A stretch of 64,000 nt of DNA from a virus. This document shows positions 14,327-23,258 of this stretch, piece after piece. Every line of letters begins with the position of its first letter. The stretch's first letter is position 1. The notes below the pieces were generated by a model, which was given only the letters and a program-made list of their open reading frames with translations, was not told the origin of the DNA and did no database searches. A program made the position numbers and the translations under genes. The stretch lies in the IMG/VR virus record IMGVR_UViG_3300020448_000003, positions 35,009-99,008 of that record; one strand, given 5' to 3'.

Positions 14327-14385
14327 ATTATAGAGGATTGACACCTGTATTCAATACAGAATGTGACACTAATAAAAGTGTCACA
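14327..14385 (-). promoter_or_regulatory. Early promoter cassette 1: perfect palindrome TGTGACACT-N6-AGTGTCACA plus TTGAAT-16-TATAAT
   Basis: Palindrome 14362-14385, -35 at 14349-14354, -10 at 14327-14332. Confidence 0.8.
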
Positions 14386-14400
14386 AGATCGATTGACTTT

Positions 14401-14793
14401 TTAGTATTTTATCATCTTATTATCCATTAAGATAACAGTATAGAATTTCTGTAAAAGATTTCTGTACTTTATAGTTTGCATATCGTAATTTGCATCTTTA
14501 ACAAATGCAATATAGGATACTTTAGAGAATTTTGTTTTATCAATATGGATTGCTCTGTAATCGTCTGCTGATATGTCATCCTGTGCAATGTCATATACAA
14601 CTTTTCCTACTACAGTACCGCCAATAAGGATATTTGCAAATGCTCCTCTCTGGTGATAGAGGTGATGTAATGATACATTATTTTTCCAACTTCCGTTACC
14701 ATATGAATCGATTGCTGTTAAAAGTAACCTCTGGTAGGTGTCTAACCTTACTGTCTTGTTAGAGTGCTTTGCAAGTACTTTTGTGAAACCCAT
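14401..14793 (-). CDS. Hypothetical protein, probable distant paralog of 13960..14295
   Basis: Behind cassette 2; DANYDMQTIKYRNLL resembles DGGWQSNTTKSRLNA. Confidence 0.65.
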   Translation of the reverse strand: MGFTKVLAKHSNKTVRLDTYQRLLLTAIDSYGNGSWKNNVSLHHLYHQRGAFANILIGGTVVGKVVYDIAQDDISADDYRAIHIDKTKFSKVSYIAFVKDANYDMQTIKYRNLLQKFYTVILMDNKMIKY

Positions 14794-14821
14794 AAATTTT
14801 TCCTTTGTTTGCTATACCTCT

Positions 14822-14880
14822 ATTATAGTGGGTTGACACCTGTATTCAACATTGAGTATGACACTAATTAAACTGTCATA
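14822..14880 (-). promoter_or_regulatory. Early promoter cassette 2
   Basis: TATGACAC-N8-CTGTCATA at 14857-14880; TTGAAT-16-TATAAT. Confidence 0.75.
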
Positions 14881-15122
14881 GGGGTCATTGACTCTATTAA
14901 ATCTATCTGCTTATAGTCGTAAACAGGCATTTTATAATGTATATTATTTGTTAAATGTAACTGTGGACTTGTTTCCTCGTCATATCTAACAAATACCTGA
15001 TAATTGGAACCTCGAAATCTCACATAATCCCCAACTCCAATATCCTGGAATTTCTTATACTTTTGTAATTTAAGTTCACTCATAACGATTTGATTGTAAA
15101 GATTTTCTGATAATGGTTGCAT
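14868..15122 (-). CDS. Hypothetical protein (possible SH3/KOW-like: IGVGDYVRFRG)
   Basis: ORF with TAATG coupling. Confidence 0.6.
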   Translation of the reverse strand: MQPLSENLYNQIVMSELKLQKYKKFQDIGVGDYVRFRGSNYQVFVRYDEETSPQLHLTNNIHYKMPVYDYKQIDLIESMTPMTV

Positions 15123-15322
15123 TATTCAATACCGCCATTTATGTAAGGTAAAAGCATCCATTGATATTTGTTGATTGCTTCATTCGGGTCGATGCCATCA
15201 ACAATATACTCATTAAAAACTGCTTTACTGTCTTCAATACGATTGTCTTCTACCAACTTACCTAGACGTTGAAAATAATGCTCTGTAAGTTGGTCGATGA
15301 TCTGCTCTCTGTCAATTTCCAT
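15122..15322 (-). CDS. Hypothetical protein
   Basis: ORF with TAATG coupling. Confidence 0.6.
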   Translation of the reverse strand: MEIDREQIIDQLTEHYFQRLGKLVEDNRIEDSKAVFNEYIVDGIDPNEAINKYQWMLLPYINGGIE

Positions 15323-15340
15323 AATAATAAAATGAATGAA

Positions 15341-15859
15341 TTAAATAATTTGTAACCCAACTGAATAGATATACTTTTCAGATAGGGTATATCCTAATCT
15401 AGGGTCTTTTTTTACCTTTTTACTGTGAAATTGCCTTTCAAGGTTAGGTAATAGTTTATCATAGACTTGTTTCGCTGTGAGTCTCCACACTTCTACAATT
15501 TTACCATCCTCATATCTTGCGAAATAATGATGATGGTATTTTCCTATCTTTTCATTAAGGATATAATCAACTTGCTTTTCCCAAGTGTCTTGAACTGATA
15601 TACCATTGTAAGTTGCTGTTAATTTCTTACCAATAGTTGATTTATATTCTACTGGTAGGTCATACTTATCGTAAGCATCCGCACCAGAATAGTCATCCGC
15701 AACCCTATGACCTAATATCCCTGCCATATGAATTTCTCTTGATCTGGCATATGAAAATGGGTCTCCCCATCCTTCAGTATTACAGATTTCATACATTTCT
15801 TCAAAGAGTCTTGTATATCTCTGTTCTGCTGTTTCTTTTATCATCGGTAGCGAAATCAT
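15341..15859 (-). CDS. PD-(D/E)XK nuclease, PvuII-like restriction-endonuclease fold
   Basis: GADAYD..VEYKS catalytic motif; KIGKY..FARYEDGKIVEVWRL..DPRL parallels PvuII GNDAVD..YELKS..IIAKY..FAIY..AIYRL..NPKI (recalled). Start moved to 15859 because the promoter lies inside the longer ORF call. Confidence 0.65.
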   Translation of the reverse strand: MISLPMIKETAEQRYTRLFEEMYEICNTEGWGDPFSYARSREIHMAGILGHRVADDYSGADAYDKYDLPVEYKSTIGKKLTATYNGISVQDTWEKQVDYILNEKIGKYHHHYFARYEDGKIVEVWRLTAKQVYDKLLPNLERQFHSKKVKKDPRLGYTLSEKYIYSVGLQII

Positions 15860-15881
15860 TTTTTTTGTTTGAATTACTTTT

Positions 15882-15940
15882 ATTATAAGGGATTTTATAC
15901 CCAATTCTAGGTAGAGTGTGACACATAATTAACTGTCCTT
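15882..15940 (-). promoter_or_regulatory. Early promoter cassette 3
   Basis: TGTGACAC-N8-CTGTC at 15917; TAGAAT-16-TATAAT. Confidence 0.7.
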
Positions 15941-21360: not shown

Positions 21361-21366
21361 TATAAT

Positions 21367-21399
21367 AAAAAAAGGGTGGTATTTCTACCTGACCCTTTT
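21367..21399 (-). terminator. Hairpin plus T-tract directly after the cassette 9 -10 box
   Basis: AAGGGTcaGGTagaaatACCACCCTT followed by TTTTT. Confidence 0.55.
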
Positions 21400-21458
21400 A
21401 TTATAATTGTATTAGTTTTAAATTCTATAAGTTGTGTGACACTATTCTAACTGTACCC
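21400..21458 (-). promoter_or_regulatory. Early promoter cassette 9
   Basis: TGTGACACTATTCTAACTGT at 21435; TAGAAT-16-TATAAT. Confidence 0.7.
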
Positions 21459-21860
21459 GAACTGGTTGCATTTTGCGATAAATGCTGTTCTATGGTCATC
21501 ATCGAGTGCATTATTAATGTTATCGTATGAATCGGTTGCTGACTTCTTAACTTTACCAGAAGTACCCTCAACATATCCCCATATTTTAGTATGACCACCT
21601 CGATCAGCAGGGGCGGTTGCTTCGATAACCAGATCATCAGTATTTACTGTATCTGCTTTTTTACTAAAAGACCAAGTGACGCTAGAATCGTCAGCATCTA
21701 TTTTTGCTTTCTTTCTTGCAATTCTATCATCAGCGATTGCTGTTGATTGCTTCATTTCTGATTGTCTTTTAGTTATGTTGGCAAGTCTATATGCCTTTGC
21801 GTTGGTTGTTAAACCACTCAAAAGTTCATCTGCCCATCCATTTACTTGACTTGTTGCCAT
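21447..21860 (-). CDS. Hypothetical protein under a late promoter; distant paralog of 20953..21360
   Basis: IWGYVEGTSGKVKKSA resembles VNAFVDKKSGKVYKPA; TATAAATA upstream. Confidence 0.65.
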   Translation of the reverse strand: MATSQVNGWADELLSGLTTNAKAYRLANITKRQSEMKQSTAIADDRIARKKAKIDADDSSVTWSFSKKADTVNTDDLVIEATAPADRGGHTKIWGYVEGTSGKVKKSATDSYDNINNALDDDHRTAFIAKCNQFGYS

Positions 21861-21884
21861 CTTTTTAATATACTAATACTTCAT

Positions 21885-21892
21885 TATTTATA
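21885..21892 (-). promoter_or_regulatory. T4 late promoter TATAAATA
   Basis: Perfect motif 24 nt upstream of ATG 21860. Confidence 0.7.
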
Positions 21893-23146
21893 CTAGAAAA
21901 TTGGTTGACCTTCAACAAATACAGTATGAACTACCTTTTCTAATCTCCTTCTTATCTCTTTACGAGTAGTCGGAACTGTAACATAACCAGTTGACTTTCT
22001 ATAGAAATTTAACTGACCTGACTTGATAGTCTTATTCTTTAGTTTAACTTTATCATCGTTATGTAATCTAATTACTCTACCGATTGTTTGAGTCATTTCG
22101 ATATAGTTTAGATTTCTTAATAGTATGCAATGAGTTAAACCTGATATGTTGATACCTTCAGATAATATAGAGTAATGAAACACTATAAACTTCTTAGCGT
22201 CATCGTTGCCCCACTCTGAAAGTGTAGTCATAAACTCTTGTCTTGATACTTTCTTGTTATTAACATAGGCACCAAATTTGCTAGTAACGTGTAAAACATC
22301 ATAACCTAATTCTTTACACCTTGATAGCATATCTGTCTGACCTAACATATTACCAAGAATACGAGAACTACCAACTGCAACTAACACTTTTCTTTGAATA
22401 CAGTAGTCACTTGATCTTTTTTCAATATGCTCTAGTGATTTAATAACAGCGTGAGCATCAGCGTTATGTTCATCCCTTTTTGTTCTCTTGATTGTATCGT
22501 CAACGTGAAATGGTACTATTGTAGGTGGTATGATAGAACCATTATCAATTAAGTCAGGTGCAGGGATGTTGCATATTATGTTACCATAAGTATCTGACCA
22601 GTTCATACCTACCTTACCTCGATAGTTATGTTTAGGTGTTGCTGTAAAGAAATAACACTTAGATGCGTTGCGAGAGAAGTGATCTGTAGCAGGGAAAAAA
22701 CTTTTTGTAGTGCTATTGTGTGCTTCATCGAAATATATTGTATCAACTTCTATCTCACTATCCATCAATTTATGTAAACTATGATAGGTTGTAAATATAA
22801 CTTGATGCTTGATACTATTGTGATACCAGTTGTTTATCTCGTTTATCTTAGTTGTATTAAGGTGCTTACCCTTACCACTATGAACGTGTAACACATCGAT
22901 GCCAACATTATAGTTACCATCTAGGTTTTGACCTAAAAAGTCATCACATAACTGTTGAGCAAGTAGTATTCTAGGTGCAACTACAACCATAGTCTTTGCT
23001 ACGCTATTAACATTGAATCTCTGAATAGCGTGACGTATCATAATAAATGTCTTACCACCACCAGTAGGAACTACAACCTGACCCTTATCAAATTGGGTCA
23101 TAGTCTGCAATGCTTCAACTTGATGTGGTCTCAAAATAACTGTCAT
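21893..23146 (-). CDS. SF2 DEAH helicase (ResIII-like)
   Basis: LRPHQ (Q motif), PTGGGKT, FDEAH, FTATP, SEGINI, QTIGRVIR. Confidence 0.88.
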   Translation of the reverse strand: MTVILRPHQVEALQTMTQFDKGQVVVPTGGGKTFIMIRHAIQRFNVNSVAKTMVVVAPRILLAQQLCDDFLGQNLDGNYNVGIDVLHVHSGKGKHLNTTKINEINNWYHNSIKHQVIFTTYHSLHKLMDSEIEVDTIYFDEAHNSTTKSFFPATDHFSRNASKCYFFTATPKHNYRGKVGMNWSDTYGNIICNIPAPDLIDNGSIIPPTIVPFHVDDTIKRTKRDEHNADAHAVIKSLEHIEKRSSDYCIQRKVLVAVGSSRILGNMLGQTDMLSRCKELGYDVLHVTSKFGAYVNNKKVSRQEFMTTLSEWGNDDAKKFIVFHYSILSEGINISGLTHCILLRNLNYIEMTQTIGRVIRLHNDDKVKLKNKTIKSGQLNFYRKSTGYVTVPTTRKEIRRRLEKVVHTVFVEGQPIF

Positions 23147-23165
23147 TTAGATAGTATAACATAAT

Positions 23166-23188
23166 AAAAATGGTGATGTGTAATCACC
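23166..23188 (-). terminator. Short hairpin plus T-tract
   Basis: GGTGAT-5-ATCACC followed by ATTTTT. Confidence 0.45.
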
Positions 23189-23198
23189 TGATAGAATC

Positions 23199-23258
23199 AA
23201 TATAATCGAGTTTGCCTCGTAACGCTAGTTACTTTGTGACACTTTCAGAATTGGTTTG
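23199..23258 (-). promoter_or_regulatory. Degenerate promoter cassette 10 upstream of the helicase
   Basis: TGTGACACT half-site at 23235; TATATT -10 at one base greater spacing than in the other copies. Confidence 0.45.

Follow-up and report, generated by a model that had tools for sequence, protein, structure and literature searches.

Nine fixed-geometry promoter cassettes with an upstream dyad in the small-gene region of an uncultured T4-like cyanophage

The small-gene region and its cassettes

The window analysed here is a 64,000-nucleotide stretch (positions 35,009 to 99,008) of IMG/VR virus record IMGVR_UViG_3300020448_000003, a 99-kb contig of an uncultured T4-like cyanophage of the family Kyanoviridae. 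The contig carries genes for gp32, baseplate proteins, PhoH, ThyX, CpeT and a tryptophan halogenase, and its closest isolates are P-SSM4, P-RSM3 and P-SSM3, to which its nucleotide identity is only patchy. T4-like cyanophages cause a large share of the mortality of oceanic Prochlorococcus and Synechococcus, and to our knowledge no factor that switches on their first genes has been named so far. Between positions 13960 and 21360 the minus strand of the window encodes about 29 small open reading frames (ORFs), mostly of 40-130 amino acids and many of them of no known function, which form a putative regulon of nine transcription units, each downstream of a cassette that combines a 24-bp dyad with a -10 box and is likewise on the minus strand. 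These cassettes are probably activator-dependent early promoters of the phage, and the protein that would dock on the dyad most likely comes from the host.

Along the transcribed direction, a cassette consists of a distal arm TGTGACAGTT, four nucleotides, a proximal arm tAGTGTCACA, 29 bp, the hexamer TATAAT, a shared leader ..AGTATAg-AAACAAAGGAG and the ATG. The 29-bp stretch holds TTGAAT, TTGAAA or TAGAAT, separated from the -10 box by a 16-bp spacer. In cassettes 1 through 9 the 29-bp spacing and the TATAAT are both exact, and the pattern GTG[GT]CA[CT]A-N29-TATAAT has nine matches in the 99-kb contig, all on the minus strand at 14.3-21.5 kb of the window, whereas 200 shuffles average 0.005 matches; the full dyad pattern gives 19 strand-matches where 3.8 are expected. 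An earlier sequence-only reading of the window had listed ten dyads, nine of them 29 bp from a TATAAT, several followed by a shared leader and together heading a putative regulon of about 30 genes, and all of this agrees with what we find, the dyads lying at exactly the coordinates it gave. It had also described a nearly invariant proximal arm and a decaying distal arm. The proximal arm is indeed invariant and positions 1-4 of the distal arm decay, but the distal arm has a conserved core of its own, [A/C]CAGTT, which survives where the outer TGTG is lost.

Cassette 1 (14327..14385) has a perfect dyad (14362-14385), TTGAAT at 14349-14354 and TATAAT at 14327-14332, and heads the ORF at 13960-14295. 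The dyad of cassette 2 (14822..14880) reads TATGACAG..GTGTCATA (14857-14880), with TATAAT at 14822-14827 and the ORF at 14401-14793 behind it. Cassette 3 (15882..15940) has a dyad at 15917-15940 whose outer distal arm is weak (AAGGACAGTT), a TAGAAT box and TATAAT at 15882-15887, and is followed by ORFs 15341-15859, 15122-15322 and 14868-15122. Consensus dyads are present in cassette 4 (16334..16392; dyad 16369-16392, TTGAAT 16 bp from the TATAAT at 16334-16339), which heads two 62-amino-acid ORFs, and in cassette 5 (17283..17341; dyad 17318-17341, TATAAT 17283-17288), which heads five ORFs of 51-69 amino acids. Cassette 6 (18609..18667) has the dyad TGAGACAG..GTGGCACA (18644-18667), which cannot form a hairpin, and TTGAAA 16 bp from TATAAT (18609-18614), ahead of seven ORFs of 42-70 amino acids, and cassette 7 (19740..19798) has the dyad AGTGCCAC..GTGTCACA (19775-19798) and TATAAT at 19740-19745, ahead of four ORFs. 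The distal arm is reduced to CCAGTT in cassette 8 (20898..20956; dyad 20933-20956, TAGAAT, TATAAT 20898-20903), which heads five ORFs of 52-86 amino acids, and to ACAGTT in cassette 9 (21359..21458; dyad 21435-21458, TATAAT 21400-21405), which lies ahead of a DUF7717 gene (20953-21360). Directly after the cassette 9 -10 box there is a hairpin followed by T7 (GGGTCAGG..ACCACCC TTTTTTT), and a second promoter, TAGAAA-17-TATAAT (21387-21359), lies between this hairpin and the DUF7717 gene; cassette 9 may thus give a transcript of only about 30 nt, or it may be a dead copy. The weak tenth copy (23199..23258, minus strand) has lost all of the dyad (23235-23258) except CCAATT and the proximal arm AAGTGTCACA, and has a 30-bp spacer and TATATT. 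It is doubtful as a promoter, since between its -10 box and the helicase gene (21893-23146) there are a hairpin that resembles a terminator (23188-23172) and a further promoter.

Promoters of a second kind lie nearby. Consensus TTGACA-17/18-TATAAT promoters that lack the dyad are found at 12695-12667, 13958-13930 and 24671-24642. Of three such promoters named in the sequence-only reading, those ending at 12667 and 13930 stand, but the one at 32405-32377 is TTGACG-17-TATAAT. The view that the cassettes are a distinct promoter class of fixed geometry, separate from the adjoining consensus sigma-70 promoters, is supported. The promoter at 13958-13930 is followed by a 10-bp hairpin with T5 (13929-13904) and then by a gene for a 2-oxoglutarate (2OG)-Fe(II) oxygenase-like protein (13236-13886).

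A further small element of fixed position is GTCAA, which 11 of 128 cassettes have at a distance of exactly 7 bp on the upstream side of the dyad and none at the adjacent offsets. It mirrors a TTGAA 7 bp downstream of the dyad, which is present in 13 of the 128. In the window it occurs at 14393-14404 (cassette 1), 14888-14893 and 16400-16405, and it is also found in P-TIM40, S-TIM4, MbCM1 and four IMG/VR loci. On the opposite strand GTCAA reads TTGAC(T) and could be the -35 box of a divergent or antisense promoter, for example TTGACT-18-TATAGT on the plus strand from 14888 to 14917.

Conservation of the cassette and nature of the dyad

A 96-bp cassette query matched P-TIM40, MbCM1 and P-SSM3. 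Units that agree with those of the window in dyad and 29-bp spacing number seven in P-TIM40 (48.9-55.1 kb) and four in Syn9 (48.5-53.1 kb); in both phages they sit in the small-gene region between the methylase/helicase genes and baseplate genes gp25/gp6, with which the regulon region of the window is syntenic, as it is with that of P-SSM4. When a search prescribed no more than the proximal arm and a TAnnnT box, additional units came to light in P-SSM4, P-SSM3, S-TIM4, P-RSM4 and MbCM1, with a distal arm TGTGnCAGT in nearly all of them, so that seven isolate cyanomyoviruses carry the element. Orthologous genes retain the cassette across genera, for example those whose products start MRKIE.. 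and M(T/H)NFKEFL..; the first gene of cassette 7 (MTNFKEFL..) retains it in P-TIM40, S-TIM4 and MbCM1.

At least 119 stretches in IMG/VR carry a cassette. This raw count is not meaningful alone, since a rough chance expectation is of the same order, and the matches were therefore judged by the distal arm, which had been left free in the search pattern. In 92 IMG/VR cassettes this unconstrained arm has C at position 6 in 88 and A at position 7 in 81, and G4, T9 and T10 are also favoured. The dyad and the -10 box are conserved across these 92, whereas the -35 region holds only about 0-0.4 bits per position; the non-canonical -35 box with a 16-bp spacer that the sequence-only reading had made part of the promoter is present in the window phage but is a feature of its lineage only. 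A conserved A..AT also stands 7-8 nt past the -10 box and likely marks the transcription start.

Start sites are said to have been mapped in Syn9 and P-TIM40 by Doron et al. in 2016, who reportedly found a "novel regulatory element" of early genes that is conserved among T4-like cyanophages, with middle genes reportedly under host-like promoters. The same unit is present in both of those phages, in the five further cyanomyoviruses named above and in the IMG/VR stretches, at least 119 in number. This suggests that the class, which cyanomyoviruses use ahead of their small genes for host takeover, is already known, as the sequence-only reading had cautioned, and that the window cassettes appear to be new members of it. 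In the open full-text literature that we searched no paper was found that gives the sequence of the Doron et al. 2016 motif, and promoter prediction in Sullivan 2010 used BPROM and known motifs only. The window itself brings nothing new on the promoter class; the feature is real and looks functional, and the remaining interest lies in what reads it and in the testable host candidates.

The dyad could in principle be a protein site or a stem-loop, and its variation speaks for the former. Among 36 aligned dyads there is no covariation of the arms, 81.1% of cells being paired compared with 80.5% in shuffles (170 of 500 shuffles were as high). At pair 5-20, the sole variable arm position, 33 distinct cassettes have A-U 12 times, C-G 5 times, U-G once and no pair 15 times, and in the IMG/VR set the two positions vary independently (Fisher p = 0.17). 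A hairpin of -11 to -13.5 kcal/mol is possible for the perfect copies, but three of the six copies folded (18644, 20933 and 21435) give no hairpin (z about 0.3) and yet keep the promoter geometry exactly. The inner bases GTT...(A/T)AG, which would be unpaired in any hairpin, are conserved, and no U-tract is present at the cassette dyads. Because the arms do not co-vary, half of the copies folded are unfoldable and the -35 region has near-zero information, we read the dyad as the likely protein site of an activator-dependent promoter and not as a stem-loop. Its position, about -66 to -43, is close to the -42 to -65 at which the sequence-only reading had placed a bound dimer. The site is not of Crp/NtcA type: TGTGA-N6-TCACA and GTA-N8-TAC are both ruled out by the 14 bp that separate TGTGA from TCACA.

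The promoter would thus have four parts, namely a TATAAT -10 box, a weak or absent -35 box, a conserved start region about 7 nt downstream and the dyad, whose consensus across the family is TGTG[A/C]CAGTT-N4-(A/T)AGTG[G/T]CACA. A two-fold symmetric DNA-binding protein would dock on the dyad near -54 and recruit host RNA polymerase to a -10 box with which no -35 box is conserved, a design that would correspond to the activator-dependent "type 2" promoters of cyanobacteria. The neighbouring consensus promoters would then belong to a later, host-like class. The repeated cassettes may in addition serve as homology patches for gene shuffling.

Candidate readers of the dyad

The reader is most likely a host protein, since early transcription has to begin ahead of all phage protein synthesis and no GntR domain was found in the contig or in five complete cyanomyovirus genomes; on this search a phage-encoded GntR reader is rejected. 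The GntR family matters here through CGRE1, a 22-bp palindrome with GTTA flanks in the yfr2 promoters of Prochlorococcus and marine Synechococcus; PMM1637/PlmA, a regulator of this family, binds CGRE1 promoters and activates them (Lambrecht et al. 2018, PMC6191309). Host genomes were reached with a PsbA query from P-TIM40 (a CpeT query against the genome contigs for hosts gave no match), and the form of CGRE1 was settled from real host sequences. TGTGACAGTT lies upstream of Rfam Cyano-1 (Yfr2) genes in Prochlorococcus MIT 9302, SS51 and MIT 1012 and in Synechococcus RCC307. Of 151 Prochlorococcus genomes sampled, 80 contain the pattern AACTG[G/T]CACATGTGACAGTT when 2 mismatches are allowed (a reversed-pattern control had 0). 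It stands upstream of the Yfr2 core in 23 fetched loci and matches the published CGRE1 description. A loose host scan with TGWSMCA-N1-14-TGKSWCA returned only noise.

The distal arm of the phage dyad is the promoter-proximal half of CGRE1, TGTG[A/C]CAGTT, the two consensus sequences agreeing at 10 of 10 positions, the degenerate A/C among them. The distance is shared as well, the end of the half-site lying 55-58 nt from the Yfr2 5' motif in hosts and about 55-57 nt from the probable start in the phage, and neither the CGRE1-bearing host promoters nor the phage cassettes have a consensus -35 box. The two sites differ in where the partner arm lies. In CGRE1 the arms abut, with AACTGKCACA directly upstream of TGTGACAGTT (21-22 bp), whereas in the phage the partner is downstream after 4 bp, has the form (A/T)AGTGKCACA and makes a site of 24 bp in all, so that the two centres are about 12 bp apart, which would be roughly one helical turn. 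The phage dyads do not fit the CGRE1 palindrome (TAACTGKCACA abutting TGTGACAGTTA), as no AACTGKCACA is found in the 10 nt upstream of any of them. Some Yfr2-family copies (in MIT 9302 and SS51) hold only the TGTGACAGTTA half, behind which comes AGATAGAGGTCTA, similar to a phage-type proximal arm in decay, and have the terminator of a Yfr10 gene upstream of the half-site. The single Cyano-1/Yfr2 copy of Synechococcus RCC307 has GGTGGCACA at -35, 16 nt before TAGTTT, and no upstream palindrome.

As the 10-nt half-site and its distance from the start are shared with CGRE1, the leading candidate for the reader is the host PlmA-type GntR regulator (PMM1637), which every host genome searched encodes once. 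When the phage-type 24-mer was looked for across the host genus, one match kept recurring, directly upstream of that very gene: TATGAC[A/G]AATGTTAAAGTGTCACT is found exactly, 35-36 nt before its GTG start, in 43 of 151 Prochlorococcus genomes (for example at G002:C1:1219698-1219771 and G001:C1:1155008-1155080 in our genome set). This 24-mer, TATGACRAATGTTAAAGTGTCACT, has the arrangement TGACA-N10-TGTCA with a proximal arm AAAGTGTCAC; it is invariant while the spacer between it and the start codon varies, and the low-light (LL) strain MIT 1012 does not have this form. It is likely an operator, and its presence upstream of the host PlmA-type gene is new here. The early promoters could accordingly be rearranged copies of the yfr2 promoter that PlmA reads, with the dyad at the PlmA gene as a second class of site, although we hold this specific proposal only tentatively.

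Several findings weigh against it. PMM1637 did not bind its own promoter or change the activity of that promoter in E. coli, and yfr5, with just one CGRE1 half-site, was not shifted by it either (PMC6191309); it is because of these negative shifts that PlmA is kept here as a candidate, on the doubtful side, and not as a conclusion. The high-light (HL) Prochlorococcus promoter of the PlmA-type gene carries a phage-type 24-mer, and compared with CGRE1 the phage site has its arms in swapped order and separated by 4 bp. It may be that the phage-type arrangement is read by a second factor and not by PlmA, or that binding by PlmA escaped the assay because of fragment limits or a missing effector. 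For the broader interpretation of the cassettes as early promoters, the start sites and the early timing in this phage are predictions, and the identity of the element with that of Doron et al. 2016 is probable from what that study reportedly describes and from the unit in both of its phages.

The dyad might instead be read by a host component other than PlmA, either the factor that acts on the 24-mer at the PlmA gene or RNA polymerase itself through its alpha C-terminal domains or a group-2 sigma factor. This is also possible but doubtful. The invariant phage-type TGACA-N10-TGTCA before the GntR gene and the failure of PMM1637 at its own promoter both favour it, and the proximal arm at about -49 to -42 would fall in the zone of UP-element and activator contacts. 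An operator at the gene of the regulator is, however, typical of GntR regulators, the Crp/NtcA spacings of N6 or N8 are unlike the N14 between TGTGA and TCACA, and Prochlorococcus has very few DNA-binding regulators (PMC6778093), among which PlmA is the sole one whose known site contains this half-site as its building block.

That a phage protein uses the dyad as its operator, either an activator delivered with the virion or a repressor made early that turns off early transcription at the early-to-middle switch, seems quite unlikely. T4-like cyanophages lack MotA and AsiA (PMC5780444) and so need another switch, and the many small early genes of no known function leave room for such a protein, but the same half-site at the same distance serves host promoters in uninfected cells, a site centred near -54 would not sterically block polymerase, and the five complete phage genomes have no GntR domain, GntR being the only fold searched. 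The weakest alternative, that the dyad is a PeSL-type (promoter-early stem-loop) structure that terminates or attenuates upstream transcripts and acts as a patch of homology for shuffling with no protein reader, would account for the recurrence of conserved cassettes between genes and ahead of ORFans in a hyperplastic region, a setting known from PeSLs (PMC2839356, PMC4122927), for the foldable perfect copies and for the passing of cassette 1 in a loose terminator scan, but it is very improbable, and ruled out as the main function by the lack of covariation and the unfoldable copies, to which can be added the missing U-tract, the conservation of the would-be loop bases, the fixed position of the dyad relative to the -10 box where PeSL stem-loops are variably placed, and the fact that the real terminators of the region are separate hairpins (13929-13904 and 23188-23172).

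A host reader thus remains the probable one, and the comparison with host promoters narrows the search for it to a very small set of host proteins. If PlmA reads the cassettes as rearranged yfr2 promoters, the first wave of phage transcription would be wired to the nitrogen and high-light stress circuit of the host, and the onset of infection would depend on its nutrient and light state. If PlmA is not the reader, the conserved site at the host PlmA-type gene would point to a second factor common to host and phage. No paper linking cyanophages to PlmA or CGRE1 was found in the open full-text literature searched.

Relation to known promoter systems

The closest counterparts of the cassettes are the units of the two phages studied by Doron et al. 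in 2016. Syn9 and P-TIM40 share with the window phage the dyad, its 29-bp distance to the -10 box and the genomic place; they differ in the -35 region, which is GCCCC in Syn9 (where the -10 box is TATTCT) and CACTACCG in P-TIM40, where the window phage has a TTGAAT or TAGAAT box with a 16-bp spacer.

The PeSL cassettes of RB49/phi1, T4/PST and KVP40/nt-1 (Arbiol 2010, Comeau 2014) are likewise repeated composite intergenic cassettes that precede ORFans in hyperplastic regions. They share with the window cassettes a stop codon, an inverted repeat, an early promoter and a Shine-Dalgarno sequence, and both are plausible substrates of homologous shuffling. PeSLs combine near-consensus sigma-70 promoters with terminating stem-loops, often with a G/C-tract, that vary in position; the inverted repeat of the window cassettes is fixed in position, lacks a U-tract and is under no visible constraint to pair, and only their -10 box is consensus, the -35 box matching at 4 of 6 positions with a 16-bp spacer.

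In their layout the cassettes resemble cyanobacterial type 2 promoters, the activator-dependent ones such as those of NtcA, in which a -10 box is combined with an upstream dyad in place of the -35 box. At NtcA-activated promoters a host dimer recruits the polymerase. The NtcA sites are GTA-N8-TAC and centred at -41.5, whereas the phage dyad has a different sequence and its centre lies near -54.

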